DNA of 61,879 nucleotides, filler included, from Hausera hauseri (lineage: Eukaryota): NCBI GenBank assembly GCA_046269625.1. It is 12 parts of 12 records of this genome, joined end to end, with 100 filler letters (N's around TTAATTAATTAA, not from the genome) between each part and the next. Parts side by side here need not be neighbours in the genome. Positions count along the whole stretch, not along the records: positions 4,714 to 8,788 come from JBJURY010778871.1; 11 more parts are not named here. The stretch is one strand, 5' to 3'. Positions 1-51,129 of the stretch are shown piece after piece. The notes beneath the pieces are model-generated. The model was not told the origin of the DNA, did no database searches, and worked only from the letters and a program-made list of their open reading frames with translations. Numbering within the stretch: the stretch's first letter is position 1; each line of letters starts with the position of its first letter. Position numbers and translations under genes: made by a program.

Positions 1-1589
1 AAAACTTTCCTTAATGCCTTAATCTATGGGTGAACAGTAGTGAGTAGTGACATTGGACAAATAATATAATGTGCTAATACTTTGAAAAATTCCACGCTCC
101 GCCACTGGAATTAACTAATATACTATCAGTCTTCAGCCCCAAACTGACAGCAGTGCAACGCATCAAAGATTTCGATGGATATTCTACGAACCATGTTTAT
201 TAGTTTATTACTTTAAGGAAGACGACATCGATAGAATCACACTTGGAGTAAGGGCTTCGTCTTTGTTTCTTTGTGTGCAAATCTGTTTTTAATGACTCTC
301 CATGCTCTCGATATTTCCCTATTATCACATGACAGTGCTCTGTCTAATCATATACCTCTTTAGCACAAGAATACAAATTAAAAGTACAAATGCATGTCTA
401 ATGATTAAGGGAATATCAGTAGTAAGCATATGTACAAAACGGTTAGCATTTGTATCGATTTTTCATGTGGATCAATGGTCCCATATAACTTAGTATTTAT
501 GTGGATCGGCATGTGGATCTGAAGATCCACATTCAACAAGGTTCTATAAGGAAAAATATATATGTAGTAGATGATGTATACGCTATCATCATAATTCTTT
601 TTTTTTATTTTATTTAGATATCATCACGTACCGTGTCATATAAGGGGGTAGCATTGTTAGAGTTATTAGTGACCAAGACATGTCTTTGTAGTAAGGTAGG
701 TAGTAGATGATGTATACACCATCATCATTTTATCGATGACGTCAGCATCTTGATGACGTAATTTCTTTAGTTATGTAAGGTGTGTATTGTTTCCCATGAG
801 GAGAGATGTTTTTAAGTTTACATTAGATATTATCATGTGCCATGTCGTATACGGATTGTTAGTGACCAAGACCTTTCCTCCAAGCATAAGTGTAGTGTTT
901 TCAGGGGATGAGGTATAGGGTAGCATCAGGTGCCCTGTTGGTTTGGTGTCTGGGTGCTGTCATCAGGGGAACCACTCGAGACTTGCTGGCAGGCAGCCCG
1001 GGTTAACTGCTTGTTGGTTGGCAGACCGCCGTGGCAACATCGGTCATTTTTCCTGTAACTAAAGATACAAGGACACTGAAATTACAACATAACCCAATTT
1101 TTTTATATTTTTATTTACGTTAGCACATAGAAGCAAATTTTCTAAATGTTCTAATTTTAGTCTTTTGGTTGGTATTCTTTGACTGTCGATTACAGGTATG
1201 TACTGAACAAAGGAGGAGGTTACCGCTTCGATGTTCGGTTCAATAGTAACATTGGTTTGGTACTAGGTTCTGTTGCTGTAGGACTCGTTGTTTTTCTTGG
1301 TCTTTTTCGTCGAGCTCTCAATTTTAGGGGCTCGGATTCGTCGTGGCTTGGTAACTGTTCATCAAACGTATTTTGCGCAGAGCAATCAAAGGACGAAAGA
1401 AAGTTCTGAAAGTTAGGGATTTGCAAAGATTCGTCAAAGTTCTGTAATGGGTAGGTTTCTCTGGAAGTTTCAACCAACGCCTTAATAGTCTGTAGAGGCT
1501 CGGTTTCTGTGGCTGCATCGGTAAACGACGGTCATTCTGGAACATCCTTTGGTTATGTCGTTAGGTATTTGACGGTGGATAAAACGTCA

Positions 1590-1803
1590 CTTTACACGTC
1601 GACGAGTTGTTCAAACTCTTCGAATATGAGCGAGATACCAGTTTTCATAGTGTACTTTTTGTTGCTTTGGCCAAAGTATCTTCTAATGCGTATAAGCACT
1701 CTGTTTCTATACGGGGAAACTGTAACCAATTTCACGGTCTTATCGATTTTGCCAACACGGCATCACCGATCATGTAAACGTTGTTGTCAATTTGTGTAAA
1801 CAT
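1590..1803 (-). pseudogene. PC4/Sub1-like ssDNA-binding domain, frameshifted (absent from the ORF track)
   Basis: Manual translation: ATG at 1803 (MFTQIDNNVYMIG), then a shifted frame gives KLVTVSPYRNRVLIRIRRYFGQSNKKYTMKTGISLIFEEFEQL, matching the PC4 pattern VSVxxFKGKVLIDIREY...KGISLxxEQWxxL. Confidence 0.7.
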
Positions 1804-1890
1804 TTTTGAAACAGAAAGACGCCCGGGCGTGCCACTCGCTTACATACCAGTATAACCGGTTTACGTCGGTTTTTATGACATCATAGTTAT

Positions 1891-2364
1891 TTATAGAACA
1901 ACTTTGATTAGCCAAGGTCGAACTAGACGCCAAACGAGCCCATCGTTGGCGTGCTGGCGCGTAGATGTAAAAGGCATGATGACGCGTCGCATCGATCCAC
2001 CTCTACATTTAATCATGATGAAATAAATGACGTAGAGTCCACACGTGGTACTAAGCATATCTTGTATTGGTCGCGCGTTATAGATGACAGGTCTGTGCGA
2101 GTTACGTTTAATAAAGGCCGCAACGTCTGCGTGCAGCGGTGGAAAACCAAACGAATCAAAGTAATGAAACGTGCCAACACCATCATAGTACAAAGCTACC
2201 CAATGCGTGCCAGGACGATCGCTGGTATCTGTATTTACGACGAAGATTGCTGGTTTAGTCTGGTCGATAAGCGTTGGTAACATAACGCGAGGTAAGACTT
2301 TGACAAGATGTCGGCGGACGAAAATGTCAGGATTTAGAATCGCGTATAGCTGTCGAGTATCCAT
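1891..2364 (-). CDS. Adenain-like cysteine protease (Polinton/adintovirus maturation protease)
   Basis: Intact 157-aa ORF with VVNTD..PGTHWVA (His), YFDSFG (Asp) and QDMLSTTCG (Gln/Cys) motifs. Confidence 0.92.
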   Translation of the reverse strand: MDTRQLYAILNPDIFVRRHLVKVLPRVMLPTLIDQTKPAIFVVNTDTSDRPGTHWVALYYDGVGTFHYFDSFGFPPLHADVAAFIKRNSHRPVIYNARPIQDMLSTTCGLYVIYFIMIKCRGGSMRRVIMPFTSTRQHANDGLVWRLVRPWLIKVVL

Positions 2365-2367
2365 CTT

Positions 2368-3666
2368 TTAAGCCACGAAGTCTAGGAACATTTGACGAGT
2401 CTTGGAAATTTCAATTATAGAGTCTTGCTCAGCGTACACCATGACTTGTAAGGGATACAGCATTGCGGTGGAAAATTTAAACTCTAATGAAAGAGGTCCA
2501 TTTTTTGCAAGTTCAAACTGGTCACCGTCCAAAAGGCTGGGACTTAGATCGAAAGCATAAAGGGCATAACCGTCTTTAAAATTTTTGTAGTCGACATCAC
2601 AGCCAGCATCCTTACCGATCAGACCTATGGCTAGATTGGTGCCAAAGAAAGCTCGGACGTAATGGTCATGGTCAAAATCGACTGTTAACGACTTCCCTGT
2701 GGCCGTCTGCCCGTCGACGGTGACGTTCAAGTATGTCAATTCAAAATGTTGAAAGTTGAACGGGTTATTTTTTTTGGCGCCATTAAAAGCTGAGGCATTT
2801 ACTAACCCGACCATGATGTGCATCGGCGTTTGACTGATGAAAAGGTTATCTTGAATGTGCGACAACATTCCTCTTGGGATGGACAAGGTCTTTATTACAA
2901 CTCATTTGATTTGGTATTTTGCGTTCGCTGTAGTTAAGGCCTTTTCATGTGCCAGAGAGATGGCTGGATTTAACTTGGCTTTCCTGACTACCAGGACGGC
3001 TGAACTATAATTGATTTATAATCTGCTGGATCATCGGCTTTAAGCGTCCTTGGCCGGTGTGAACTTTATTTTTACATCTATGCCGTTCAGCAAGTATCAG
3101 TCTTGCACGAAAATGTCAGAGTACAAATTTCCCATCATATCCATTTCTCAACTACCTCCAGCCAACTCCCGACGCACTTTTATTCCAAAATTGAATTCAC
3201 CTTTTGCATCATCAAAAAATTTTGGAGTGTCATTGTAGTATAGAGCTGCCGTCAGGTGACCCTTTTTGGCTTCCTGACCGTAATTTAAGGTCGAGTCGAG
3301 ATAAGATCTGTAAGGATATGTTTTTTCACTAAGCGTGATCAATGTATGATTCAGGGCTACGTTCACTTGAGAAAATAAACTGTGTAGGTAATTGTTGACT
3401 GGGGCGACAACCGCGTCTTTGGGTATGTTGTTGCCATTGGCTAAAACGATTTTGGCTCTCACATGTAAAAAAGTATTAAACAAATCTAGATACTCTTTGC
3501 CGTTTCTGGATATTACAAATTCTATGTTCACCCCAGGTGCGGGAGAAGCGAGAGGGTGAATTTCTACAAACTGTCCTTCCTCTGCTGTCGTTTGTGTCAG
3601 AGGAACGCTAAACAAATCCAGTCCAAAATGAAGACATTTGCACAAGCCAGGGTGAATAAGAGACAT
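2368..3666 (-). pseudogene. Polinton/adintovirus double-jelly-roll major capsid protein, broken by several stops
   Basis: LDLFSVPLTQT, IEFVIS..EYLDL, PVNNYLHSLFSQV, YPYRSYL, AHEKAL...AKYQIK, AFNGAKKNNPFNFQHF, GYALYAFDLSP; in-frame stops between 2900 and 3150. Confidence 0.9.
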
Positions 3667-3767
3667 TATTAATCAAAGATATCTCAATACGGCCTCTTGC
3701 TTTTTCTTGGACTCGTTATGAGAAATACTCAAAGTGACTGTCGGTTTTGTTCTTTTGTTCGATCGCA

Positions 3768-4127
3768 TCATGGGGCAGCTTTTCTTTTACATTGGATTCC
3801 GCTACCCGAATGGTTGCCTGCCATGTGGCTCACCGCACCTTGCAGCAGTTTCGGAGCCGCTTGTTTGGCATGGTCTCTAAAGACTTCACCAACATTTCTA
3901 CCGACTAAAGCGTCCTGGGCGACTTGCAAGCCCGTACAAACGCCTTCCCTGAGCAGGGCTTTGCCTCCAGTCTTTAGCCATGGAAGCACCGTTTGACCCA
4001 AGCCGCTAAAGAAACTTCCAATCCTACTTCCTCTTTGATGTCTACCACCGACAAAGATGGAAATCCCATCTCCATTAAAAGTCTTCGTATGCCTCGGCGT
4101 TTCGATGCAAAGGGTATGTCTGACCAT
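3768..4127 (-). CDS. Polinton/adintovirus small Gly-rich core or membrane-active protein between penton and major capsid
   Basis: QRGSRIGSFFSGLGQTVLPWLKTGGKALLREG amphipathic segment, GxG motifs, basic C-terminus, typical gene position. Confidence 0.7.
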   Translation of the reverse strand: MVRHTLCIETPRHTKTFNGDGISIFVGGRHQRGSRIGSFFSGLGQTVLPWLKTGGKALLREGVCTGLQVAQDALVGRNVGEVFRDHAKQAAPKLLQGAVSHMAGNHSGSGIQCKRKAAP

Positions 4128-4129
4128 CT

Positions 4130-4613
4130 TTACTGGAAATCGACTTGTCTCTTCGTCCTAAAATGTAACGTCACCATCGATGTTTCGCCCATAAATAGGA
4201 TATTTTGTCCCAGTTCGTTGGTTAAAAGTATTTCCACAGTATCAAAGGAAAAACGGCTCAATGATAAGTAATGCGGCTTGTCGTAAATTCTAAACAATGA
4301 AGACAATGTTTTATCCAAAATAGGAACAGTTCGCAACAATGGGACCATGACATCTCCAACGGGTCTCGCGGCTACAAGATCAGAGTACACGTACATGTTT
4401 CGTATGTCGCTGTCGAGATTCAACGGGGATTCACCTACTAGTAGTGACTTGTTGTCTGCGATGCGTTGGGCTCCGAACCCAGCCATGCTGCTTAATTTGT
4501 CGCTGATAAAAACTGCGGCCTCTTTCACGTACCATTCCAACAGGATAGTTTTCTCGACTCGTTGATAGTGGACTCGAATTGGGGGCATCTTCATGAAACT
4601 ACCGAGCCGGCTG
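4130..4613 (-). CDS. Polinton/adintovirus penton (minor capsid protein), 5' end truncated by the contig end
   Basis: MYVYSDLV...VGDVMVPLLRTV...PHYLSL....FDTVEILLTNELGQNILF....VTLHFR, the typical penton C-terminal signature. Confidence 0.88.
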
Positions 4614-4713
4614 NNNNNNNNNNNNNNNNNNNNNNNNNNNNNNNNNNNNNNNNNNNNTTAATTAATTAANNNNNNNNNNNNNNNNNNNNNNNNNNNNNNN
4701 NNNNNNNNNNNNN
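4614..4713. other. Artificial contig-joining linker (44 N + TTAATTAATTAA + 44 N). Identical linkers at 8789-8888, 13963-14062, 20601-20700, 25147-25246, 30684-30783, 35295-35394, 39590-39689, 48936-49035, 53332-53431, 57412-57511; 10-N gaps at 24851-24860, 38140-38149, 56962-56971
   Basis: The same 100-nt cassette occurs 11 times; TTAATTAATTAA puts stop codons in all six frames; sequence content changes abruptly at each linker. Confidence 0.99.
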
Positions 4714-6172
4714 AGGTGGGATTGTTGTTGGTCTTTTGTATGATCCTCCTTCGGGTCTAGTTCTATCATTCATCAAACTTGGTATCCATCCGCTCCCACA
4801 TTTTACAAAGTTTTCTACGGTATCTCGTAATACCTTAACTGTCACTTTTATATTTCGTTCAATTTCGTCCAAATTTTGTGTTTGGTAGTTAATCGCGATT
4901 ACCTTATATAACAAATAGGCGACCGCTGTTGCAACTTTTTCTCTAGTAATTCTTGTTGCAAACATTTTTTCTAATATATCTTGTTCATGTAATTCATTAA
5001 TTCTCTCTTCATTAATATTTTCGTAAAATTGTCTGCTAATTCTCAACATAACATAACGCATAGTCTGGAATAATTCATCGGGGATAGTAACTTGCATAAG
5101 GAACGATGAAAATGAGGTATGTAACTTTGCTAATAACGTTCTTAACAATGGGTCTATGTCTATTGATTCTGTCAATGTATCCGTTCCTGCCAACAGCAAA
5201 CGTCGTACTATTTCCTCATTCCCATCTCTCTTATTTCGGATATCACTGATTTTCGTTCCTTTTGGCCTTCCTCTTTTTTTTCTCAGTTTGTACTGCGACA
5301 CTCTGAGTATCACATGGTGGTTGTTCTACTACGTCCGATGGTTGCATTTCCTTCATTATATTATTTATCGTTTCCCCCGCTCTTGCGTCCGGATGTATCT
5401 CAATTATCGTGAGTGGGTTATAATTCTCACTTCTACAGCCAATACTTGATAATTTATCGTAGCTATATAACGTCCTTCCATAAAAATGTAACCCGTATAC
5501 TTTGTCCTTATAGAACGGTTCTAACTCTTCAATTTTTCCTCGCAACGTCAATATATCATCCTTTTCGTTCATTCTGATGGCTCTCACGTCTTGACTTTTT
5601 TTATCGTTATTCTTACTGCTTCGTTTCTTCCCTTTTCATCCTTAACCGCCTTACCTAATATCGTCCGTGCTATTTCTCTTATCGGACTGATATCGTGGGC
5701 GCGTAGCAATAATTGGAATATAATTTCGTTTATTTTAACTACAGATACTTTCCCTTTCATTAATTTTAATATCGTACTTGTCGCTTGGTTTACATCGACT
5801 ATGTTCTCAGGATCAATAGCAATGACTGCTTGAATAATATCATTCTCAGCATCTAAATCTACTTCTATATCATGTATCACCTGTTCAATCACGGTTTCAT
5901 CAAATAACTTTGTAGGCTGCGCTTCTTTTTCACTTCCCTCCGATGCTGATTAGCTATGCTTACTTCTTCGTTCTCTTTTCTTTTTTTCCACATCAGTTTT
6001 CGCCACAGAGGTTTCTCTGGATTCCACATCTATTATCTTTTTGTTACCTTTCTTTCTTCCTTGGCTAGGTTTTCCTCCTTTTGACTTTTCCTCCAACACA
6101 GATACTGTTTCCCCTTAATCTTTTCTGTTGAGTTTTATAATCTCTTAGCTCCATATCTAACTGCATTCTCAT
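4714..6172 (-). pseudogene. Decayed long ORF (track ORFs 5584-5892, 5243-5587, 4666-5313 joined at poly-A frameshifts) with an AT-hook and a Bcl-2-like domain
   Basis: Frames switch at A-runs near 5596 and 5275; KKRGRPK AT-hook; EKMFATRITREKVATAVAY...VLRDTVENFVKCGSGW has BH1-to-BH2 spacing. Confidence 0.55.
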
Positions 6173-6337
6173 GCGTTGGGACAATATATCGTTAACAAGA
6201 TTTACACTTTCTTTATACTTATTGTAAGTTCAAAGAATAAATATCCGGGTACAGAAAACAAGTTAAATTTCAAAATTAAATCGAAATGTCAAAATGGCCA
6301 ATTATATTTATTTTTCAAATTTACAACCAATAATTTT

Positions 6338-6900
6338 TTAGTATTCAAACAAATCATGAATTTTTGTCTGTATCACCCCGATATTGCAGAATGCACTTAT
6401 AAACACTCCATGGGCAATGTCACAGGTAACTAACTGATGATCGGCTCGAAATAGATTCCTTGTCAACAGATTTGATGTTATCTTTTCATGTTCAGCTCGA
6501 GACTTACAGAACACTGACGAAGCGCTACCAGTAATGAAATGAATTCGCGGGTATGGTATCAGACTTGAGCCGAGTTGAGTTAGATCATTTTTGATTGTGC
6601 TTTCGAATCGCAGTGAAACGGTAATATTACTAAACATATGAGATAAAAGACGACTGATATTGTTGAATGTGGGATAATTAACGTCCATAAGATTAGCACA
6701 TACGTTAAATAAGGCTTCACTGTTGAAAAGATTCGTAACATCAGATGAATCTATATGTTCAGCATCGACAAGTTGGAATTATACGGTTTAATAGCCACAC
6801 AGAGAACTGGAGTGGGAAATATTGTCATTTCGTATCTCGTTAATTTCTAATAATTGAGTATCATGGCATTCACCATTAACGATGTAGATGCCCTTTAAGC
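6338..6900 (-). pseudogene. Divergent alpha-tubulin-like fragment, intronless and disrupted
   Basis: EMTIFPTP...IKPYNS, then shifted NSEALFNVC...YPTFNNISRLLSHMFSNITVSLRF...NDLTQLGSSLIPYPRIHF, versus alpha-tubulin PTYTNLNRLI.QIVSSITASLRF...DLTEFQTNLVPYPRIHF. Confidence 0.85.
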
Positions 6901-7112
6901 TCAGCAGACAGTTGCTGACACGATTGAATACTGCACATTTTACAAATGATAAAGGCTGTTTGCGACTTCAGAGAAATGTGACCGATTACGAACAATTTTA
7001 TCTACATTTTTACAATATCATGTTGAGTACAGACGTTGCACAGAACTAGTGTAGTTTCCAGGATAAGTGGTAAATTGTCTTGCCAATACATTTACGAGAG
7101 CAGGAATGAGTT

Positions 7113-7420
7113 TTATGATAAGAAATTTTCCAGATATTTATTTTTGTATCTCGTCATGAGTTGTAAGTATTTCACAGCCTGATGAACGAATATTTCATTT
7201 TGGCTTTGAAGCATTTCAAGAAACGTTGACCAAACGGAAACTCGGTCATCATGAAGCTCAATAAAGTACTCAAGAATTGTAGTTCGAACCGAAAGAACTA
7301 TCATGTGAACAACGCCTCTGTTCTCTGTGTCACGAATTTGTATATTAGCTCCAAGTGACATAATGGCTTTGATTGTTTCAAGAGCCCCGGCACTGACAGC
7401 AAGAAGGATTGGAGTAAACT
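7113..7420 (-). pseudogene. ANKAR: Ankyrin-repeat fragment resembling ANKAR (ankyrin-armadillo junction)
   Basis: TPILLAVSAGALETIKAIMSLGANIQIRDTENRGVVHMIVL...VSVWSTFLEMLQ resembles ANKAR TPLLLAATSGALDTI..L.SIGAN...VWKTLVEMLQ; fragment only. Confidence 0.7.
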
Positions 7421-7439
7421 TAACGATATTTCGAGTTTG

Positions 7440-8310
7440 TATATTTTTCCATTCCGAATATTCCATCGTTTTCACCAAATGTGAAACGACGAGTTCGATA
7501 GATCGTGGAACATATTCATCAATACGACCTCAGTAATCGATAATAACCATTTCCAGCAATTTTGCAGCATAGCTTTCGTAGATTTCATTGCTCTCTTGAC
7601 TGTTAAATACGATTTGGCAGATTTCGTAAGTCGTATTGATTTTATTACAATCGGCAACGAAGGTGTTTTTGTCAACTGTAATGTAGTTGGTTAGCAACGA
7701 CATCATCTCCCAAATTTCATCGGGTTCGTTTTGGATGTTCGTCTTCAAGAAGAACAATACTTGCTACATTGTCGGTGTTGCTCTACATACGGTTAAATTT
7801 GACGCAAGAGAATAAACTTCTTCGTAAAATTTAAGACGTTCTTTGTGAATATTACATGGATGATTGAAACAACAGCCGGTTTCAATGCTGAAATGATCGT
7901 TTCATTTTCTTCCATGGCTTTAGTTATTGTCTCAACAGTGCTCAAAATTCCCATGACAATGAGTTCTTTGTTATCGTCGATTTCACCCTCATTGCGAATT
8001 GATTCAATTGTCGACTGGAGATGAACGGTCATATCCAAAGCAATCAGAATAATTTCGTTGTTAAAAGTCGAAATGAGAGTGCAAAGCGTCATTCAATTCA
8101 TCAATTTGTTTTTCTCGAAGTAAAGTGAGAATGTTGGAAACTAAATTATTCAAATGTAGTGCTAAATTTGGTTTTGCTTCATCGCTCTTTTCCGGCAAAA
8201 TATCACATAGAGAATTAGCCGCCATGATTATTACTGGCAATTCTGAATCGCTGGAAATCGTATGGACAATGTTGTGAATCATATTCCGAAACAACGTCAT
8301 TCTGATAAAT
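7440..8310 (-). pseudogene. IPO7: Importin-7/8-like HEAT-repeat fragment, intronless and frameshifted
   Basis: LPVIIMAANSL, IALDMTVHL, MGILSTVETI, LLTNYITVD, YAAKLLEMVII match importin-7 MPVKVEAAIAL, IAVEMTQHL, MGILNTIDTL, LLHNYVTVD, HAAKLLEVIIL in order. Confidence 0.82.
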
Positions 8311-8639
8311 AAGAACGTGGCAATGATTGTCGAAACCGGTAAATGTCAATTTGCTACCATCTTTGTTGTAGCTCATTGAATCAACTTTGATTCCCGATTA
8401 TGTCGACGACAAACTCGGTATTTTTTTGTCTCCGGAATCGTAGATGTTTGATTTGAAGTCGGTAAGTTTCATTTGATGTCCAACCAAGTGGGCCAGAGGG
8501 CGCCGGCCGCTGTGGGCACCACAGTTGTCCTTAATGTTGAATGAGTTTTGCCTCCATTCGGTCTAATTTTGAAAGGTCCCTGAAATTGATTCACCAATTT
8601 CGTATATACGGAGTGAGTCATAATTCATGGTGAATTTTA

Positions 8640-8788
8640 AAGTTTTCTTTTCCAATTAATGAAAGTTCGCCTAGGAGGTGCAACATTATTGAATTTATTA
8701 ACAAATCTTCTACTACAGCCTTCAGTACTTTCATCGTCCTTGCTGATAACCCAAGCTGTAATTGTAACCTTTTCATTTATTGTGTATA
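8640..8788 (-). mobile_element. Possible Tc1/mariner-type transposase N-terminal helix-turn-helix relic (DUF4817-like)
   Basis: Manual translation YTINEKVTITAWVISKDDESTEGCSRRFVNKFNNVAPPRRTFINWKRKL. Confidence 0.45.
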
Positions 8789-9651
8789 NNNNNNNNNNNN
8801 NNNNNNNNNNNNNNNNNNNNNNNNNNNNNNNNTTAATTAATTAANNNNNNNNNNNNNNNNNNNNNNNNNNNNNNNNNNNNNNNNNNNNGGATTATCTCAG
8901 GTGAAACGAATCGAATAATAGTATCGGTTGCTACGGAGGAAACAAAAGAGGCCACAAGGAAAGCTAAAATAGATCAATGTGTAGGGCGGATTGTGGGAGT
9001 TAGAGATGCAACAATGTATTTCGAGTACTTGCAAAACGGACAAAGACAAGGAACAATACGATAAAAATCTAGTACCACCCAGTGAGATCGCATCAGTTAT
9101 CGCGAAACAAAAGCGTCCAGTCAACAGACCGCGAAAAATACGAGAAGAAATTGATTATAATGCCGATTTAACTAGAGAATTGAGGCAAATGTCCATACCT
9201 AACTTTAGTAGAGAAAATGAACAGCTAAATGAATTTATGAAAAATTTGATACTCATAGTAAACCTGTGAGACGAAATATTAGACGAAAAAGAGATATCTA
9301 TATTAAATGCAGCTAGAACAATGAAAAACTTTCTCTGTAAACTATCGAGAAGCTCCTTGAGCGATGGAAGGGATGTTAGAGGGAATTATGGTAGAGAACA
9401 CCATAGAAGAATTAAGGAAAGTGCTACTGTATTTGGCCATTAAAACAAATCCAGCTTGAGAAAATGAATTTAACAAAGCCACTAGTCTAGTGCGGAAAGC
9501 TGCCAGGAAATTACCCCGAGAAGTAAACGGGTCTAAATTATTCGAAAAAGAACAAGAGCATCAAAATGGACCCTCACTTAACGATAGTAATGGTATATTC
9601 AAAGACATGTTGCGAAGTTTAAACAGAGATAATCGGTGAAACGAACCAAAC

Positions 9652-11450
9652 TTGATAATTAATTTCCTAACTGTGATGATGTTAATAAGACAAATGGGAG
9701 AGGTTACCATATATGACTGTGACAAGTTCAAACTTGGCCAAAAATATTCATTGATGGATTTAGAAATATGCAAAGACGCGAGGCCACATAGATTAGAAAC
9801 AAAAGAAAAAAGCTACGTACTGTATCAACAACAAGAGCTAGTCTCATTAGACGGGATAGAATGTATGCTGCGACGATCTCGCAGTATCTTCCATTGTGAG
9901 CTAATACACAGACATTCATCTATAATCAAGCCAACGACCCCACTAATTCCAATGAACTTAGAACGCCAGCATTGTTAACAAGGTAGGGAGATAGGCAGGT
10001 TAAAATGGAATGGTATGGAAGTAGAAATGCAGCAAGAAAAAATAATCAGAGCATATAAAGTAGCAGCCGGAAGATTAGATATGTATACCGGACACTGTAA
10101 CGGTGCAGAATACGGTACTGGAAATGGATTAGAACCAAATATAGTGGTTGTGGATTTCTGTGAAACCGAGATGGGCACATATAAAGTGATGTTTCATAGC
10201 GTTACTAAGCTGTACAAGGAAAACCAAAAGTGCCAAATCCAAGACGGCACTTGTGTTTTTAGAAGTTAATTAGTAATTTTGGAACCTCCAGCCAAGACCG
10301 ATTGCAATTTTAGTAAAATTAAAGAACTTAAGTTTAATGAAATGACAGGAAAATGTTATGTAAGTAGTACGGATACTAACTCGTAAATGCTAGAAGATGT
10401 AGCTGAGCATCCCACACCTACCATATTAATTTCCGATACTCATGGGTTAAAATTTGTAAAGAAAGATGTACTCACAAGATGCGATGTAGTAATGTATGCC
10501 ACTAATTATGAAGCGTTCTTTGTAACTGAGCCTGAGACAAATGCCAAAACGTTCAAGCTTGAGACTCCAGATATTCAAATTGAGGATTATTTGAAAAATA
10601 GAGACTATTATTTCTACAACAAAGGACAGGCTGGAATAGCTGAGTTATACCACAAAATGATAACGAATGACTGCAAATTAGACTTAGAAATCATGAGAAC
10701 CAAACTGGATTTAATATATGCCAATCCCGAGCTAGCATTATCAATATTTCCGATGAAGGAAGGCGTTTTTCGTCGAGTAACTGGAGAAGTCCTACTGACT
10801 TATGAATGCGAGAAAAAAGATGTACCCATTAATGTGGAAGAGAAGAGATGCACACAAGAACTTCCGATAATATATCAGGACATGCCGATATTAGTACTGC
10901 CAATTACTAGAGTATTACTGTCAAATTCCACCCAACCGACAATTCTGAAAGATTGTAAACCTAGTCTAGGAGAACCCATGTTTAGACGTAGCTTACCAAA
11001 CGGTGGTATAATTACGCCGCCCATTAAGTTAACGGGAACGAACTTAATAGAAGTAATAACTAATAATAAGTTTCAAGATACTGCAGCAAAAGGCATTTAC
11101 CGACCAAAAGAAGTGGAGGCATTCAGACAATTTCTCGCTTTCCCAGGCCAGCGCACACATGAACTAAACAGAGCTATGCACACGATACTAGAAGATTCAC
11201 GTTATTAAGCGAAATGGGAATCGTTACTTTGTGTTAACTACTGTCAAAAAGTAACTACCGAAATATTGTATAAAATTTTCGGAAGGTTTCTAATATCCGG
11301 ACAAGCCGCATCAGGATTACTTCCAATTTATTTCTTAATTCACCTGGTTAAAGCGATAATTCAAGCGGTCATAAATGTATACGAGATCCTCACTATAACA
11401 GGATTCTAATGTAAAATTTTAACAGCTATATCACATCTTTCAATAAATTG
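9652..11450 (+). pseudogene. Chuvirus-like (class III-type) envelope glycoprotein with signal peptide and C-terminal membrane anchor
   Basis: Hydrophobic leader then IYDC...YSLMDLEIC; NDCKLDLEIMRTKL..ANPE..EGVFRRVTGEVLLTYEC..RCTQELPI..LPITRVL; KGIYRPKEVEAFRQFLAFP; read-through gives FGRFLISGQAASGLLPIYFLIHLVKAIIQAVINVY. Confidence 0.8.
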
Positions 11451-12149
11451 CTAAAGGCTTACGAAGAAAATAGATGGAAAGCGGATATGGAACGATATGT
11501 TGGCTATCATAATTGAAAACGTAAAAGGAGACACATTTAGTTACAAACGCACATTTATAAATGTCAAGACACGAAGAGATAACCCTGATGATGATGAGCC
11601 TAAGGGAGGAGACGCCGTCTCCAAGATATACAGACACAGAAACTATTCAGTTATAAAACCACTACTACTAATGCTACCGCCAACTGTACCGATATATGAA
11701 GACTGTGAAAAACAATCTATGAGCTCATATCAAACAGATATCTATATAATACCGTTCAACCTTGAAGATCCTTATTAAGGAGCAAAACATTATGGTATAT
11801 TACGTAAAGTTAGCGAAACGAAAAGAACACCTGCTCTATATCGTCATTTAACTCTCGACGACCATGGAATAATCTATTCACCAAGAATATCCAGGCCGAA
11901 AGAAATACGATCCACATTCTCCAAAGACCATGAGACGCAGAGTTTTAGGAATCAGGAAATACAGCCGCCAGTTAGGAAGCAGGAAACGGAAAACGTTAAT
12001 TGTACGAACAATGAACTGTACCCAAATGGAGAGCTAAGACAGTTAATCGACCAGCCAGTAGCGACCACTGAAGTTAGAATTAACGGTTATAAGGTGTTGA
12101 CAATTCAACAACCAAAGAAAGCGCCAAATTACTATGGTACAATAATCGA

Positions 12150-13962
12150 AGGTAGACCCAACGCGAAAATTTAGTTGGAAGATGGGGAAGTCTACGCATT
12201 GATAGACAGAGGATCCGAGATATCACTAATAAAACATGACTCAATATTGCAGTTCCTACCAAAACAATTATACCCCTTTAGAACAACAGATCCAGGAAGT
12301 ATTGAAGCTTTTGGACAGTCATCGAAAAGCAAATTCCGGTGGAGGCCAGAAATTTGCATAATTGGGCAATTTTTTCATCACGAATTTTTAATAATGTAAC
12401 AGTTAACAGACGACGTAGTTTTAGTACACGATCTGTGGAGGCAATTACCTAATGTAGCAATAGACTTTCGTTCAGGGAAATTAATGGAGCTCGGTCCGAT
12501 AAAAGGAGTTAAGACCACCAAAGATAGGCAATTTGGAGAAGTATGGATTCCAGTGGACATAAATATTAACATATGGTCAGATCTTTAAGATGACAACCAA
12601 CCAGTATATTTTGAGCCAAAAGAATCCTTAAACCCTAGCACTGTACTCAGTAATGTATTAACGAAAGTGTCAACGGGTCATGTGCCAATCAGAATAGCTA
12701 ATAACGCGCCGACCGAAATTAAATTGTACTCCCATACTACTTTGGGTCACACTTACAGAGTATTATCAATAACTATCGACGAAAAATTTTACAAATGTGC
12801 GGAATTATCACGTAATGTCAATATTAAATTCTCACCGGAATCATACTTTCGTTTTTATGAACTACTTTGCAGCTGTAGTTCAGTCGTCGCAAAAGACGAA
12901 GAAAGTATTGGTAGAGCTAAAACCCTGAGATTAGCAATTCCGCTTAAGAAAAAGCCGGGCTGGAATGACGAAATTGATCTAAAAGACTAAAAGATGCCAG
13001 ACAGTATCCTTTTTCTCACTCTTTAAGGCTTGAGACAACAAAGGAAGTTGAACGTATGCTAAAGGCTGACATAATTAAACCGAGATATAGATCTTGGTAC
13101 GCGCCCATACTTATGGTTAAAAAGAAAAGTACTACAAAACATCGATTTTGTATCGATTATCAAGCGTTAAACACCCTTATTATGAAGGATTCCTTACATT
13201 ACCATCAATAAAGGAAGCCCTGGATAGACTCGCTGCAGAAAAATGGTTTACCACGCTAAACTTGCAATCTGGATATTGGCAAGTAGAAATAGAGGATGAA
13301 GATCGCTATAAAACCGCACACTACAGAGTATACTAATTTAACATTATGCCATTTGGGATAACTACCGGATCAGGCATCACTACTCGAAATAGGAAAAAAT
13401 GTTCGTGGGATTGGAAAACGCGATAGCGTACTTGGACGACATAATAATCGCATCAAAAACGGAAGAAGACTTAAAGGGTATCGAGGACACCCGCATGAGA
13501 GTGGAGCAAGCAGGATTGAAACTGAATCCTAAGAAATGTAAACGGGCTCAAAATGCAGTATCCTATCTTGGACATATAGTTGGAGAAGGAGGATCGAAAC
13601 CCGACAAGTCACTGTTAAATAAAATATCAGACTGTATGGAACCTCTGAACCAAAAGGAATTAAGATATTGGTTAGGTTTATGTCAGTATTATGCCACTTA
13701 TGTACCTGACAATTCGAAGATAAATGCGCCATTATACCGTTTGCTTAAAAAAGGAATTAAAAGGAAATCGACCGACGTCAAGCAAAAGGCTTTCGATTAA
13801 ATGAGAAAAATTTTAACTAGCGAACCAGTTTTAAGATATCCTAATTTTAACCTACCGTTTATAATTAAAACTAACGCCAGTAAAGAAGGCATTTGATACC
13901 ATTTTGCTCAGAAACGAGAAGATGAAGAGGTAGATCATCCTATGGCTTATGGAGGACGATCA
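12150..13962 (+). pseudogene. pol: Ty3/Gypsy pol: aspartic protease, reverse transcriptase, start of RNase H
   Basis: ALIDRGSEISLI (DTG mutated), APILMVKKK..RFCIDY, LNLQSGYWQV, AYLDDIII, GLKLNPKKC, YLGHIV, LTSEPVLRYPNFNLPFIIKTNAS. Confidence 0.93.
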
Positions 13963-14062
13963 NNNNNNNNNNNNNNNNNNNNNNNNNNNNNNNNNNNNNN
14001 NNNNNNTTAATTAATTAANNNNNNNNNNNNNNNNNNNNNNNNNNNNNNNNNNNNNNNNNNNN

Positions 14063-14540
14063 CGCTCTGAATGGAAAGAAGGACATCTTGTTAAAATTCG
14101 TAAAAGGTAGATCTTGGCGACTGCGCAAACTATAAAGAAACCACCCTGATATCTATACCAAGGAAAGTTTTAAACAGAATAATCCTAAATAAAATAAGAG
14201 ACACAGCTGATACACAAGCGGTGGATCAACAAGCTGGCTTCCGCAAAGGGAGATCCTGTATAGACCAGATCACAACACTGCGCATTGTTGTAGAACAGTC
14301 TCTAGAATGGAATTCCCCTTCTATGTTAACTTCATTGATTACGAAAAAGCATTTGATAGTGTAGATAAAGAAACACTATTGAAACTGCTTCGACACTATG
14401 GAGCACTAAATAAAATAATCCCTATCACAGAAAATACACACGATGGCATGAGTTGCAAGAAGATGCATGAAGGCCAACTTACAGTCTTTTCAAGTGAATA
14501 CTGGAGTTAGGCAAGGATGCTGCTGTCGCCGCTTCTCAAT
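14063..14540 (+). mobile_element. RTE-clade non-LTR retrotransposon RT fragment, disrupted
   Basis: QQAGFRKGRSCIDQITTLR, FIDYEKAFDSVD, GVRQGCMLSPLL. Confidence 0.88.
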
Positions 14541-15383
14541 AGAAAGAAGCTTCAGAGAACAATGTTAAAAAGGTAAACTTTGTATACCTTGCTACATTTG
14601 TGATCCCTTTCCTTGTCAGACAGCTTTAAAAGCAGAAAATGCTGGCTATTGTCCCACAGAACAGCTTTTCATATGGCTGAATTTACCATGTTTGACTTAC
14701 CAATCATGTCACTACTGGAACTTCAAACAATACCTATATTATTTTGTCCTGTATCTTTGCAGCTACTTTATTTGTTCTTCATCTTATTGAACAATGAAGT
14801 ATTGAATGTATTGAATGTTTTAATGTCTCTGCATAGAATTGACATCCAAGTCACTAATAAAGTCTTCCGTTTATATTCTACATGTATCTTTGTATCTCAT
14901 CTTTGCCTCATGGCCTTGTCCCCTCTGACAATTTAGCAAATAAAATATTTTGCAGCAGTTAACAGCGAAATTGACCTGTAGGCTTACACTAAACACAACA
15001 CTGCACAAACTCTGTACGTGCTATGCCGAAACTATTTATATTTGTTTTTTTTAATGGTATGTTTGATTTGACATACATCAGCTGAACATCTTCATGACAA
15101 AAAATCTTCGCTGGCTTTTGTGATCAGTAAGGCAGGAAATTCTATCATGCAAAGAAATTAGCAGTTGAAAATTTAAATATGACAGTAAATGCAATTAAAG
15201 TATTTAACATTTAAAAAGAAATAGAATAAGTCACTGTGGCAAATTTTGTTAGATAAATTAATGAACAAATATAATTGATGTACTAAGAAAATAAATATAT
15301 AAACAGTCTGTATCCTGTCTACTTCACAGACATTCCCATTTGATGTTTCTCACCTGCTGGCACAAGGAGTAGAGCTGCAACCC

Positions 15384-15911
15384 ATGTCATCTACCAGGCT
15401 CAGGTACCCATATCCATTTCTGGATTCAGTTTTAGCTACCCAAAACTCTACACTGAAATCTACTGTGAAAGCGTCACATTTTTCAGCTAAACCAAGTGAA
15501 GGTATAGAAGACTATAAGATCAACTGCCCTGCACAAGCTGTTGTAAATTTACCTCAAATTAGCAATGATGGGAAAGAGCCAACTCCTTTGTCCAAAACTT
15601 CATCAAAAGCATCAGGATTCACAGCTGTGTCGGGAATGAGGAATATGTGCTCATTCTGCAAAAGAATCAGAGAACGTGAACAATTTTGTGCATCACATTC
15701 TCAGAAAGATCCAAATGGAATTGTGATTTGTCCAATCCTAAGAGCCTCTATTTTTCAACTGTGTGGGGCGACTGGAGACAATGCTCACACACGGTCTTAT
15801 TGCCCACTTTCAATTGAGAATTCACGCGCAAAGCATTCCGTGCACAAGAAATGTGGTAATGGTTATGTAGGATACAGCCATGGTCGTAGATTTCTAGGCA
15901 ACAGTTTTTAA
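15384..15911 (+). CDS. nanos: Nanos-family CCHC zinc-finger protein, possibly the last exon (candidate acceptor AG ending at 15329); one zinc ligand substituted
   Basis: CSFC-x12-H-x10-C-x7-[F]-x2-C-x7-H-x4-C with PILR and CGATGDNAHT signatures. Confidence 0.85.
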   Translation: MSSTRLRYPYPFLDSVLATQNSTLKSTVKASHFSAKPSEGIEDYKINCPAQAVVNLPQISNDGKEPTPLSKTSSKASGFTAVSGMRNMCSFCKRIREREQFCASHSQKDPNGIVICPILRASIFQLCGATGDNAHTRSYCPLSIENSRAKHSVHKKCGNGYVGYSHGRRFLGNSF

Positions 15912-25645: not shown

Positions 25646-28600
25646 TCACCTCATTAGTTTCTCCAGAAACATTTCCACATTGTACTCTTTTTCATATTCT
25701 TCAACAGAATCATAAGCATTCTCCAAATTAGACAGCACAGCCTTCAATCCAGTTTTTGGTATCTTTGGTTTAGTTTGACTCTGTACAGAATCTCTGTTCA
25801 TGGAATCGAGAAGATTATCCGACTGCATGGAAGCCAACTGCTGATTATCCGTACTGACGACAGAATTCGCGATGTGCAACTTAAACTGCTGTAAATTCAT
25901 TATCTTCTCCTCAATGGAGTCAGCAGTGATCAATCGATAAACATTCACTGTTCTCCTCTGACCGAGTCTATGTGCACGATCCATCGCCTGCAGATCTCTC
26001 ATTGGATTCCAGTCATGTTCTACAAAAATGACTGTATCCGCTGACGACAAATTCAATCCCAGACCACCGATACTGATCGTCAATAACAAAATATCCACTG
26101 ATGGATCCTCATTAAATCTATTCGACACAAAATCAATTGTCATAATAACACGCAATACTTGTCGACAATTAACTGTCGTTCCTTCACCGATATTGATCCG
26201 TCCAGTCTCAAATAAGACGCCTTTGGAATATGGGACTTTAACATTCGTTCCACCAATGAAATCATTGATTTTGATTGGCAGAAAATGAGCACACGGTGAT
26301 TGGATACAACAGCAGCAGAACATATGATATCGGGTGACGGTGATGACGTCACATAATCATCGATACCGATGCCGCAGTCGAATATTAATTGTCTAAATGA
26401 ACATGAGAGGAATGTTAAAAGAATCAGATACATGGTAATTGTCACCTTAGTGCAACTAATTTCCCCGACAATTCTACATCGTCAATTGACTGGTGACAAT
26501 CGATCAATTCCTTCATGATGGACTCGTTCATTGGATGTTTATTACACAATACCAATGATGGATGATTACACACCAATCGTAAATAATGCAGTGCCTGAAA
26601 TACGTGTTTCCTCTCGTCGGTATTTATTATGACAGATTCGTCATCAATCAAATGTGAAATGTCATTTCCGGCAGTCGATTGAACGAAACACGAGTACAAT
26701 CGGGATTGGATGGGTGTCATTGTGCACATGTAGTCCTGTATGATTTTCGGTGGTAATTCATTCAAAACATCCTCCTTAACACGCCGCAGTAAAAATGGCA
26801 ACACCTGTCTATGAAGAGAATCTAATGCAACAGTCCCTTGTTCACTGTCGACTTTCTTCCCGCTACTCGAACTATTTTGTCCGAGATATTTGCCGTATTT
26901 CCGATGGAACTCCGAATGATTTCCCAGTAAACCCGGCATAAGGAAATCGAATAATGACCATAATTCGGCAACTCGATTCTGAATCGGTGTTCCTGTCAAC
27001 ACAAGCCGATGTCGAGCGAACACAGATTTGGCGGCCAAGGCAACTTTACTTTTGTGATTTCGAATAAGGTGGCCTTCGTCAAGAACTACATAATTCCACA
27101 ATCCTGTTTTGCCATCTGGACGACATAGATGATCGACATCATTTCTGAGAATTTCGTACGACGTTATCACAATCTGGTATTTGGTGAATGACGGTACCAA
27201 CGACTGCCTGTACTCCGTTGTCCCATTATAAACAATACACGTAAATGACGGAAAACACACATGCATCTTAATTTCCTTTTCCCAATGAGACGTTAACGTT
27301 GTCGGACAAATGATTAGCGATGGCGGACATCTCGTCGGATCCCTCTGATACTGCCCCACGATAATGGAAATTGTCTGTAATGTTTTCCCTAAACCCATAT
27401 CATCAGCAAGAATTCCGTGGAGTCCATATCGACTAAGAAACGACAACCAATTAACACCCTGCTGTTGATAATACCGCAGCGATGTGGAAATGCAACCACC
27501 GACACAATATTCCGCTACAGAATCTGGTCGCAACAGACCTTGAATAAATTCCCGATTCTCCTTCCGTTCGGCAATTCGTCTATCCGTCAATATGCTGACA
27601 TCGGCACCAGATTGTTCCAGTGGCATCAGATTCAGAAGTTGTGAGAAAATCAGAGTGGCCACTTTACGAACTCGATCAATAGGTGCATTCAAGGCACGTA
27701 ACACCGATGGCAAAGTATAGATAACAAGAGCTAGTCTGTACCCGAGTAATCCCCGCTGAAAGACCAAATAAAGCATTTCGATAATTCCCAAGCAAAAAGT
27801 CTCGTTAGAATAGTTATCGAGTTCTGGCAACGCCAAACCCAGTAAAATGGAATCGACAAGTTCACGACTAATGTCAACATTCTCAGATGTCAAAGGAATG
27901 AGCAGAGAAGTCATAATTCGAGCACTCCAATGTCGGACAATATTATTCTTCTGTGACAAACCATGTTCAAAAACGCACAGTGCAAAACGATTGAAATCAA
28001 TATCACACAATTTCGATAAACTTATCAAATACGGAATACACACATCCATCGACTGCAGTCCGCCTAACAGATCCGGGATTTCTTTCTCACTCAATCGTTT
28101 CAATATTTTCACAGGATTATTGTAAATGGCATCGATAAATAACGATAAATAATCCTTACAATCAGGCAGCGTCAATTGGCCAATTCGTAAACACACTTTC
28201 TCCAGAACGAGTCGACAACCTCGATATTTTATAAACGACGGTGAATCGAAATTCAATTCATCCGGGACGAATTCTTGACCGGGAAATGTTTCTCGACCGA
28301 ATTGATCAATTTTGTGCAGAATGACAACACAATCTGGATCTGTTATGCCGCCCAATGAATCAATAGAATCCGACAAGGAACCGATAACGTTACGCAGTAA
28401 CTTCCCGATAGATGTCATAAGATTCGGTGGTGTCTTGTTAATGAGCAATTGGGAAAGAGCCATGGCCGATTCAGTCTGCAAAGTCAAACGTGGATCACAC
28501 CGGACGACATCCATTAACGGACGAATGAGTGGAGTCAATTTATCCGGCAACCAATGCCACGTCAGAAGACCTCGACCCAACGCCACTTCAACCATTCTCA

Positions 28601-29462
28601 AAAGATTCTGATGGTATTGTGAACACAAATCAACAGCAGTTCGGGCACATGAAAAACACGGATCTGCAGCGGCATCGATTGACATTAACTTAGAATACAT
28701 CTCATTGGTGACAAGTGACTGACATTGCGGTAAATTCGGATTGACGACCGATGATGGAATGGACACGGGGATTTTTCTTTCGCTGTAGACTTTAATGAGA
28801 TCTTTACAGGACTTTATCATTTGGCGGAACATGGGCAACAATTCCTGATAGTAAATGGGTTCAGACAACGACGTCAACAACTGTTGTCGTACAGAACATA
28901 AGATCCGTTCGTTTTCCATTGTCCAATCAGCATCGGCCGACCAGTACGCCAGAATAGTTGCGGCAACAAATCGCTGTGTAGCCAATCGTTCACGGAGATG
29001 CGTTTGGGAAATAATCGTACCAAGGATATGATCAGCCAACGGAGGAATGAATGACAATTTCCGACAAAGATGAGCCAATGCCTTACAGGCTGTGATACGG
29101 GCTCTGAGAACAGACTCATCTCGTAACACGGAATCACCTTCAGACATGTATGATTCTCTACCGCCAATGTATAGATCTTGTGGCATGTGATATTTATTGT
29201 CTGCCATATCATTGTCTGTGTCCGGCATAATGAGCAGGTCCTGAGAGAAACTCAATCGAGCAGGCTGCATGGCACAACACATCATAATATCAAGTCTCTC
29301 AATACAACTCTGTGTCAATAATTCACAACTAATTTTGTCAATAAACATTATGTTTGTTTTTCTCATGTCGTAGTAATTACAAGTCAAAATGTAATTATGA
29401 ACATTATATTTTTGACAGTTTATTGTTATCTCGTTCCATAATGTCATTACTGCATTAATCAA
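25646..29462 (-). CDS. BTAF1: BTAF1/Mot1 SNF2-family ATPase, 5' part incomplete; exons about 29328-26446, 26392-26159, 26117-25646
   Basis: LRYYQQQGVNWL, GILADDMGLGKTLQ, VLDEGH, LTGTPIQN, LPPKIIQD, HRVLIFCQ, GGLGLNL, HDWNPMRDLQAMDRAHRLGQ; GT-AG introns at 26393-26445 (53 nt) and 26118-26158 (41 nt) restore the frame. Confidence 0.93.
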
Positions 29463-30783
29463 CTTAACGAACTAAAATGAAACATGTGAATTAACCAAAT
29501 TAATCACAACAATTGCAGTGTATTGTAATTCAGCTTACTGAGATGAAAATTACAATCAACCAGTTTTTTGTTAGATAATTCTAGATATGCGGTAAAGTGC
29601 ATTACAGGTCACAGAGTGCGTGAGTATCAACATTCTGTTTACTTCATTATTTTGTATTCATTTGCAATGGCAAAGTTAATTAAAATGTTCATACAAATGG
29701 GAAATAATGCACTAGAGCTTTCTCTGCCATTTTTGTGTAGGAATTCCACATCAAGATTGGAATTTCTGTGACTGATTTCTTATCCAACATGTTTCTTGCT
29801 CCCTAATTATTCATCGGTGCACAAATTCATCGTGGCGAGTGTCAGGAACTTTATCAACTAACGATCTGAGTTGATTTAACACATGATTAAGTTCTCATTT
29901 CCTATACGAAAAATATCAGCTAAATTCATTTTCAGAGACAAACGATCTCATGACATCGGATGACCGGTGTGTCACCTGATGATGGTGAATAATACAATCA
30001 AAAGCTGCAATTTGTGTTTATTTATTTATGTTTGCAAAATTCTGTAAGCACAAGTTTATCATCGACAGTAACAAGAACTAATACAGTTTCTTAAAACTCT
30101 GTGATTTTTTTTTTTATTTGGACCTTTCTTTTCCAATCTTCCAACCGGCCCGTGACAGTTTTCAAAGAATCAAAGTTATGATCATTGTATGATCTCCTTA
30201 ACGTTACCCTCTCCTTAGCATTCCTGACAAAAGCTCACATTATGACCAAAAACCAGACCAGACCAGGAACAACTCACCCCAAGTAAACGGGAAGAGTTAC
30301 ACATGTGCACACACAAACTGATCTGTATGTTATACAAAACACAAAACGGATTTGTGAATGCTTTGATGTCGTTGACATTTGAAAGCTAAAGGAAATAAGA
30401 CAACGAATTTAACAACAAATGCTAACGTTGATGTATAATTTAACAAAAAATATGTAGATAACAGACGTTACTTTCTGGCTGAAATGGCTCAAAGAAGGGT
30501 GAAAAATGTAAATGAAAAGTTACCAATAGACTTGCATGTTTAAAAAGATCATTAAAATGGTACCTCGTTTCACGAACTTAATCCGTTTTGAAAAGTTGTT
30601 CGTGAGCCAAATTGTCCCTGGAACATATCAACTCTTCCCATAAGAAATAATGTAAATTCCACATAATGTCTTCTTGACCCCCCNNNNNNNNNNNNNNNNN
30701 NNNNNNNNNNNNNNNNNNNNNNNNNNNTTAATTAATTAANNNNNNNNNNNNNNNNNNNNNNNNNNNNNNNNNNNNNNNNNNNN

Positions 30784-35294: not shown

Positions 35295-35499
35295 NNNNNN
35301 NNNNNNNNNNNNNNNNNNNNNNNNNNNNNNNNNNNNNNTTAATTAATTAANNNNNNNNNNNNNNNNNNNNNNNNNNNNNNNNNNNNNNNNNNNNAGTAGT
35401 TACTTAGTTTACTTGGCCTTATCCTATATCCCACATAACTTGATCAAGAAGACAACATGATATTTCTATACAACATTTGTTAAACAAAGAATAACAATA

Positions 35500-48935: not shown

Positions 48936-49035
48936 NNNNNNNNNNNNNNNNNNNNNNNNNNNNNNNNNNNNNNNNNNNNTTAATTAATTAANNNNNNNNN
49001 NNNNNNNNNNNNNNNNNNNNNNNNNNNNNNNNNNN

Positions 49036-49581
49036 TTGCCATAAATTAGCCTTGCACACTGGACAAAAACTTTCAGTGTTATTGTCTAAGTCACAATCCG
49101 TGACCCTTGTTATTTCTTGGAAAAGGAATCCTTTGGGGGTTTTTATATATATATATATATATATATATCCGTGCAATTGTTTTTGGTCGGGATCAACTGA
49201 ACTTTTCCGTGGATCACCATTAACGGCTATTAGGGTCCACTCAATTACGGGTTGGGCATCTAGGTCTGGGACTCCCATTTTCTTGTACTGTTTCTTTATT
49301 TCTATTCTGGTCTGGTTGTCGACTGGCACGGTTATTCTCTTAGTTTCTGTTTTCGATCTGAACACTGGAGTTAGATATCTGCCTAACTTGGGGTCAATTC
49401 GAGCATAAGCATTTTCATGTAATTCTAATATTGGCACTGTACGAATGTAAAATACTGCCTCTTTGATTTTCCCACGACTTACATACTCTGCCATTATCAG
49501 GATGCTAGGTTGTTCTTCCGTGTCTTTGTGGTCTTCTGTGATTATTATTTCCTTATCTTGTCTCCTTTTTAAAACATTCAC
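49036..49581 (-). CDS. Unknown ORF ending in a CxxC motif (CPVC), cut by the contig end; contains a (TA)n tract at 49144-49168
   Basis: Open frame co-oriented with the upstream cargo ORFs; no recognisable family. Confidence 0.4.
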
Positions 49582-49762
49582 TTCCGTAAGTCTCTCTGGT
49601 ATCTTCTCCGGAGGATGTTTTCTAATTTGTTCAGTTTGGGATGATCCTTTTTCTTTCTTCTTTAGAAATCCGAATATTGATTTCTTTTTCTTTTATGGAG
49701 ATGGGTCTCTCAATTTTGGCTTTTGGTTGATGTTTCTTGATAGCTCTCTATTTTCTTTGTTT

Positions 49763-50880: not shown

Positions 50881-51129
50881 CCATGATTCCTTTTAAACTG
50901 TTGGTATTTCATCTATTTTATTTTACTCAATTGATGGTTTGTTCTGTAATTCCAAGTGTATCGCATTCTCTTGCAAAAATCCATTGATGTCCATACAAGA
51001 ATTGCTGCTGGCCGCTATGATACTCACCAATCTGAAATAGAACAAATAAAGGTTAATCCTAAGACAGATCTTTGTTTCATTACAAAACAATTTTACTGTC
51101 TAATGACAGAATAACCTGATCTGTAGTTT

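Follow-up and report, generated by a model that had tools for sequence, protein, structure and literature searches.

What kind of sequence carries a Bcl-2-like domain inside a broken, A-rich reading frame, and what might such a domain do there? The stretch of DNA analysed here (hereafter, the window) is 61,879 nt long including filler, comes from the Hausera hauseri assembly GCA_046269625.1, and consists of 12 record parts joined by 100-N spacers. The ORF in question abuts one end of a contig of 4075 bases (G000:C778871, record JBJURY010778871.1), which occupies positions 4714-8788. We read it as a dead fragment of an enveloped element whose Bcl-2-fold domain is likely a membrane-anchored, virus-style damper of host cell death, and we put the probability of this reading at roughly 0.6. 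In the identity of the element and the Bcl-2 fold, taken jointly, we have high confidence.

A dead fragment of a Ty3/Gypsy element

The window copy, at 4714..6222 on the minus strand, is a dead, frameshifted and truncated piece from the interior of a Ty3/Gypsy Gag-Env-Pol LTR element of the subfamily that we call A. The fragment is 72% identical at the nucleotide level to the copy on contig G000:C511016 over 4749-6214 (64-79% by tblastn) and corresponds to residues 361-863 of the intact polyprotein, matched in three pieces; homology stops upstream at ~6222, and the frame changes relative to the intact copy near 5281, 5595, 5950-5970 and 6091. The initial annotation had described an A-rich, broken ORF of more than 480 codons, and this description holds, as the coding strand of 4714-6223 is 41% A and spans ~503 codons. 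It had also placed the domain in the distal part of the ORF. That is true within the window, where the domain appears distal because the contig ends at 4714, at the join with an N spacer, but in intact copies only about one quarter of the polyprotein precedes the domain.

Read along the minus strand, the fragment starts with a charged spacer and helical region (5621..6222, approximate) that separates the Gag zinc knuckle from the ubiquitin-like domain; this region has no Pfam match below E 0.08, and its pN/pS among intact copies is 0.26-0.28. The ubiquitin-like domain (5390..5620, approximate, minus strand) is of the RAD23/ubiquilin type, without the C-terminal diglycine, and is split by the frameshift near 5595. 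It is followed by the basic motif KKRGRPK, with a GRP core (5280-5260, minus strand), which is AT-hook-like and could equally be a nuclear localisation signal. The basic GRP motif is present in subfamilies A, B, D and E, with none seen in C and F, and the best match to Pfam AT_hook has E 0.21, in one subfamily E copy. The Bcl-2-like helical domain (4768..5241, minus strand), as found by Pfam, model and fold searches, comprises an extra N-terminal helix and the Bcl-2 bundle. The four motifs originally pointed out do share one minus-strand frame (4714-5322), in which the BH3-position helix MLRISRQFYENI lies at 5049-5014, the BH1-position motif EKMFATRITREKVATAVAY at 4971-4915 and the BH2-position motif VLRDTVENFVKCGSGW, which ends in GW, at 4833-4786; the spacing of 59 residues from the BH1 Phe to the BH2 Trp is likewise correct as an inclusive count.

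An artificial N spacer (4614..4713, strand not applicable) joins two unrelated contigs, so the Polinton genes at 1-4613 do not flank the element. That separate contig holds, on the minus strand, a Polinton/Maverick structural block with an adenain-type protease (Pfam E 1.3e-7) and, by eye, capsid-, penton- and core-like ORFs, the capsid-like frame being interrupted by stops. The N-terminal part of a Polinton polymerase and a Polinton accessory gene were both considered for the Bcl-2-like ORF and rejected, since the Polinton genes are on another contig and intact copies run into Env. At 6338-8400 (minus strand), host-like broken pieces that are apparently intron-free (an ankyrin repeat, a tubulin C-terminal domain) adjoin the element's truncated end; they are shared with none of the other loci compared.

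A search of the genome with the window protein gave 3070 candidate matches, which led us to reject a spliced single-copy host gene; all 150 that were scored are 68-100% identical, and some matches lie in open frames of >3000 residues. The copy on C511016 is bounded by LTRs of ~0.8 kb (1221-2022 and 13359-14173, 93.5% alike) and is ~13 kb long, with a TGG-starting primer site after the LTR, which we take to be that of tRNA-His, and one ORF of 3279 aa. Its Pfam matches run in the order Ty3 capsid, zinc knuckle, Bcl-2 (E 1.6e-4), fusion glycoprotein, protease, RT, RNase H and integrase, the Env between Gag and Pol being a Monjiviricetes-type class III fusion glycoprotein (PF24664, E 4e-91). The full order is Gag, zinc knuckle, spacer, ubiquitin-like domain, basic motif, Bcl-2-like domain, variable linker, hydrophobic segment, Env, PR, RT, RNase H and IN. 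Thus, C511016 has everything by which a Ty3/Gypsy element is recognised (LTRs, primer site, Gag, PR-RT-RH-IN), and the window has a fragment only. The initial suggestion of a large retroelement as carrier is confirmed by this LTR-bounded polyprotein, and the homologues proved to be multi-copy, with Gag, Env and Pol in the same ORF. The ubiquitin-like domain matches Pfam ubiquitin in 13 of 28 copies (best E 1.9e-5), and 19 of the 20 PDB matches of its profile are ubiquitin-like (best RAD23A, E 0.0028), the remaining one being BOK.

Searches outside the genome returned little. Protein searches (of near-length proteins, of long proteins with residues 470-900, and of longer proteins with a 71-row alignment) found no relative outside this genome, and none was found among metagenome and viral contigs; no Burro sequence (see below) was among the matches of the protein, metagenome or viral-contig searches. 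A set of 1.84 billion representatives gave one match, P0002, which is 80-85% like subfamily B of the same genome. For expression, no RNA run was listed as containing the element; it occurs as contigs in three runs of unspecified kind, which we do not count as support. Subfamily B was reached via P0002, and C, D, E and F via an Env search. All six subfamilies share the order ubiquitin-like domain, helical domain, hydrophobic segment and Env (the ubiquitin-like domain of D and F by eye). Their RT regions, where measured, are 40-59% identical to that of A; the helical domains of A and B are 45% alike and those of other subfamily pairs 10-26%, and the polyprotein of subfamily F reaches 4293 aa.

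Further relatives occur in the window itself. A second decayed element, of subfamily E, lies at 8889-13962 (plus strand; 59-67% to C427696) and has an eroded domain at the Bcl-2 position, a signal, Env, protease and RT, and the tail of a third relative lies at 48988-53330 (minus strand), with integrase and then an exonuclease-like frame (49763-50488). Other parts of the window contain a nanos zinc-finger ORF (15303-15911, plus strand), a BTAF1/Mot1-like helicase in a 1009-codon frame (25646-29471, minus strand) and a long degenerate 15-base tandem array (30732-35346). The assembly is mixed, in that its cox1 genes, by eye, presumably resemble those of fish and of two gastropod-like, crustacean-like and mite-like animals. 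One cox1 gene has AAA at conserved Asn positions, which is the flatworm/echinoderm code; the host of the element is likely a flatworm.

The predicted fold and its eroded motifs

The window domain is predicted to fold as a helical bundle around a central hydrophobic helix, as in the Bcl-2 superfamily. A search against the Pfam Bcl-2 family (PF00452), as initially recommended, gave a match that is full-length (profile positions 6-100 of 100) and weak (E 0.014), its 16.3 bits falling below the curated cut-off of 31.4. At least 11 sister copies of the element are above that cut-off. With a threshold of E<=0.1, all 28 copies of one set match, as do 40 of the 71 in a wider set; this number equals that of the A and B rows, and a separate Pfam scan matched no C-F copy. 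We also built a cellular profile from 12 Bcl-2-family ORFs of the same assembly that do not belong to the element. Against it the window domain scores 13.0 bits, which none of the 1957 reported shuffles (2000 made) reaches, the maximum being 11.7; 38 of 39 A and B copies are above the best shuffle, and 0 of 31 C-F copies score better than shuffles. Conversely, the non-element Bcl-2 ORFs score 0-12 bits against the element profile, and none stands out as a donor gene. These ORFs are of various kinds. An ordinary cellular Bak-like gene, split by very short introns, lies at 1380-2250 (minus strand) of G000:C22864 (L054). At 93-593 (minus strand) of G000:C8457 (L067), a contig of 52% GC, a Bcl-2-family ORF sits beside an RNA-polymerase-like ORF, and this contig probably belongs to a large DNA virus in the mixed sample. 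Loci L048 and L049 likewise have single-frame Bcl-2 ORFs, of ambiguous origin.

A first model, based on subfamily A alone, was poor (pLDDT 55), and its fold search yielded no clear match. The second model of the window domain, for which 71 element copies and zero cellular sequences were aligned, reached a pLDDT of 71.2 and a pTM of 0.69. In a Foldseek search of the PDB with this model, 42 of the 42 matches listed belong to the Bcl-2 family, each with a weak score (E 0.049-0.24); there was no fold match at E<=0.001 in the PDB or BFVD, and none in BFVD under E 0.12. The likeness to Bok that had been proposed reappears here and in the sequence, as BOK ranks first in Foldseek and human BOK is the sole match of the subfamily profile among PDB sequences (E 0.061). 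BAX rows are among the matches of the wide profile (E>=0.28). In a VIA comparison with 48,161 chains, the top 21 of the best 50 rows are of the Bcl-2 family (Z 8.3-6.0; first outsider Z 5.9), as are 28 of these 50 rows overall, with an rmsd of 3.1-4.5 over 102-120 residues in the alignments of the top 21. A Z under ~13 between helical bundles may just reflect a common arrangement, and because values of this size are common in such bundles, the weight of the result lies in the enrichment of one family. Residues 30-158 of the model align with Bcl-2 proteins, the first helix being extra. The nearest ESM Atlas clusters are viral or cellular Bcl-2-like, all under 0.8, and serve as a lead only. Between the Pfam matches of sister copies and the family enrichment in both Foldseek and VIA, the Bcl-2 domain originally proposed is supported.

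For the more divergent subfamilies, hhalign links A-D, B-D and C-D at 85-94%, and D-E at 13% (subfamilies A to E compared). Since C-F copies score no better than shuffles and the D-E link is so low, the putative homology of the E and F domains to Bcl-2 is argued from their position and terminal Trp.

The motifs of the family have eroded to different extents. The canonical pro-survival NWGR-type motif of BH1 is absent, with the Trp in 1 of 71 copies and the Gly in 1 of 71, so that the lack of both in the window, which the initial annotation had recorded, is a family trait rather than decay of this copy. Changes particular to the window are the loss of the Gly before BH1, though sister copies have it, and a BH2 that reads GSGW where the sisters have GGW. 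The BH2 GGW is kept in A-D (22/23 in A, 16/16 in B, 12/12 in C, 6/9 in D) and is absent from E and F, and the residue at the BH1 Arg position is still basic in A and B and no longer so in E and F. Effectors of the Bax/Bak/Bok type have the BH3 motif L-x-x-x-G-D-E, the Asp of which is needed for effector dimers. This motif is not found here, the Asp position being occupied by Arg in all 24 rows of subfamily A, the window copy among them, and by Glu in all 16 of subfamily B. Canonical BH3 binding by the domain appears doubtful, because the BH1 Trp and Gly are absent across the family; mouse Boo, which has SWSQ instead of NWGR, is described as binding no pro-apoptotic partner (PMC5691656). The predicted complex of the domain with the BH3 helix of the Bak-like gene scored 0.02, with the alignment unused, and is evidence neither way.

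Despite this erosion, codon comparisons show the Bcl-2-like domain to be under purifying selection. Among nine long-ORF copies, the domain has 83% amino-acid identity, near-saturated synonymous sites and a pN/pS of 0.12; elsewhere in the same ORFs, pN/pS is 0.14 in the protease, 0.08 in Env, 0.04 in RT and 0.69 in the adjacent linker. In all 847 pairs compared, from five subfamilies, pN is lower than pS. These copies are the best stop-free matches, a choice that biases towards conservation, and the contrast between regions of the same ORFs is less affected by it. The alignment holds 71 of the ~90 domains collected, and both it and the pN/pS sets exclude copies with stops, with <88% coverage or with <55% identity to the subfamily query.

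What the domain may do

A hydrophobic segment with small residues at its end precedes Env in 8 of 8 polyproteins from the six subfamilies; it lies ~40 residues past BH2 in intact copies, and beyond the contig end in the window copy. This segment would be the internal signal peptide of Env. Host signal peptidase would cut past it and release Env into the lumen, and Gag, the ubiquitin-like domain and the Bcl-2 domain would remain in the cytosol, fixed to the ER membrane by the spent signal much as a Bcl-2 protein is by its tail anchor. The element protease may separate the Bcl-2 domain from Gag. The domain would restrain effectors of the Bak/Bax/Bok type, probably without a canonical NWGR groove, and the cell would be kept alive during particle formation. 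This anti-death role, predicted by analogy, we hold at somewhat better than even odds. We favour it because M11L-like divergent viral folds act in this way without the motifs and because Burro1 has a reported IAP. M11L and other viral Bcl-2 folds in which no motif can be recognised are described as sequestering Bak and Bax, and their full activity as requiring C-terminal anchors (PMC5691641). Against the role stands the loss of nearly all BH motifs in E and F.

Other readings account for parts of the same evidence. One that we entertain only tentatively is that a cassette of ubiquitin-like and Bcl-2-fold domains, not an IAP, is the original cargo of a lineage of enveloped retroelements that predates Burro and spans the flatworms, and that this cassette, which stays under purifying selection with the BH3 groove motif lost in all six subfamilies, is now a non-apoptotic, ER-anchored module of assembly or immune evasion. 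If true, a cell-death regulator has turned into a structural part of a retroelement. It is also conceivable, though in our view unlikely, that the Bcl-2 fold no longer acts in apoptosis and instead inhibits signalling of the innate or antiviral kind, with the ubiquitin-like domain as a docking or decoy module. The constant pairing of the two domains would suit this, as would the absence, throughout the family, of the NWGR Trp and Gly and the BH3 Asp amid strong conservation elsewhere, and the poxvirus Bcl-2-fold proteins B14, A52, A46 and K7 offer a precedent (PMC5691641). However, A and B retain the BH2 GGW and the basic residue at the BH1 Arg position, the closest fold neighbours bind BH3, and the putative anchor suits a membrane role.

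We find it rather improbable that the domain serves the particle structurally, as a matrix-like, membrane-binding or pore/curvature module through which Gag is tethered to Env and the ER membrane in budding. In favour of such a role, the domain shares one ORF with Gag and Env and is produced in equal number with them, it directly adjoins the Env signal, and it is present in all six subfamilies despite BH erosion; the nearest (weak) sequence matches are the pore-forming Bok and Bax. Yet Gag-Env-Pol elements of nematodes and bryozoans are described with no mention of such a domain, in a paper that had not looked for it (PMC13524379). The rank of BOK in sequence and Foldseek searches, together with the BAX rows of the wide profile (E>=0.28), might suggest a pro-death effector in the manner of Bok or Bax, which would kill the cell at a late stage for particle release. 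This is very improbable, as all of these matches are weak, the BH3 Asp is absent, and an element resident in germ line or stem cells gains little by killing its own cell. A chance likeness, in which an unrelated helical bundle happens to have a GW motif, has equally little to commend it and is largely refuted already, because weak single-copy scores and zero formally significant fold matches are outweighed by sister copies above the Pfam cut-off, by 38 of 39 A and B copies above the best shuffle, by one family topping two fold searches, and by the same domain in the same place in Burro (PMC6431247).

Relation to known elements

To our knowledge, few retroelements carry host death regulators. 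Grohme et al. 2018 and Jurka 2007 are reportedly the sources on Burro / GYPSM1. In the account of Arkhipova and Yushenova, these are giant Gypsy-like LTR elements of planarians with thousands of copies, and Burro has Ubi2/SUMO-like, BCL2 and mononegavirus-like Env domains in frame between Gag and protease (PMC6431247). The Gag-Ubl-BCL2-Env-Pol layout is, by this account, already published; the BCL2 motif is listed there, and we found no functional study of it in the literature, our search for BCL2 in Burro having returned only this article and papers citing it (the original Burro papers may hold more). Our element, like Burro as described, is high in copy number and has one polyprotein with Gag, ubiquitin-like, BCL2-like and fusion glycoprotein regions before protease and RT. 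It differs in size, at 13 kb with 0.8-kb LTRs and 3279 aa versus >30 kb and 4873-5140 aa for Burro, which we compared by description only. Unlike Burro, it showed no Pfam match to MATH, BIR, ankyrin or dUTPase at E<=0.1-0.5 in the element ORFs scanned. It therefore has the Burro-type layout, but not the size and extra cargo of Burro sensu stricto as described. What is new is a compact, BIR-less radiation with graded motif erosion, evidence of selection and family-wide loss of the groove motif. Its six subfamilies, in which the cassette is kept under selection while BH motifs erode, offer a natural series for two questions: how a Bcl-2 fold functions once NWGR is gone, and whether one peptide can serve as both signal and tail anchor.

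The B-IAP of planarian Burro1 is reportedly the subject of a Dev Cell 2026 paper. According to a second-hand account, Burro1 encodes an IAP that reportedly shields stem cells from caspase-mediated death (PMC13465017). The present element resembles it in having apoptosis-related cargo in a related kind of element; however, B-IAP is described as a RING/BIR caspase inhibitor with a reported function, whereas our element showed no BIR in the ORFs scanned and the role of its Bcl-2 domain is predicted.

Flatworm errantiviruses of the GAG-ENV-POL HSV/gB type, 12-18 kb long, were described from three flatworms by Chary and Hayashi and named Smed_errantivirus_1-6, Pcro_1-2 and Mlig_2 (PMC13524379). They share with our element the ORF order, a class III Env and a similar size, and the Env row given for Smed_errantivirus_1 resembles the Env here by eye. 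Unlike our element, they are described without mention of a Bcl-2 domain, for which there are 0 true matches in the article text and 0 in seven supplements (PMC13524379). With viral Bcl-2 homologues (E1B-19K, BHRF1, CNP058, M11L, F1L) and BOK, as these are described, the element domain has in common the predicted fold, the helix order, the BH2 Trp and a C-terminal hydrophobic segment (PMC5691641, PMC5691656). It differs from them in lying inside a retroelement polyprotein, in a putative anchor that would double as Env signal, in its extra N-terminal helix and in the loss of the NWGR Trp and Gly.

Past integrase, the element has two regions that set it apart from Burro as described, one being a second region bounded by signal/transmembrane segments and the other resembling an ISG20 exonuclease. 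The former spans ~400 residues in C511016 (~2814-3250), where it has no Pfam match, and is also found in B and F. In 4 of 4 subfamily A copies checked (L032, at 1901-1931, L033, L035 and L037), the long ORF ends with one in-frame stop, followed by CGG or CAA-TTA, ahead of the ISG20-like region (E 0.007). Both CGG and CAA-TTA after a stop are viral stop read-through contexts. In subfamilies B and F, the ISG20-like region is in frame, without a stop.
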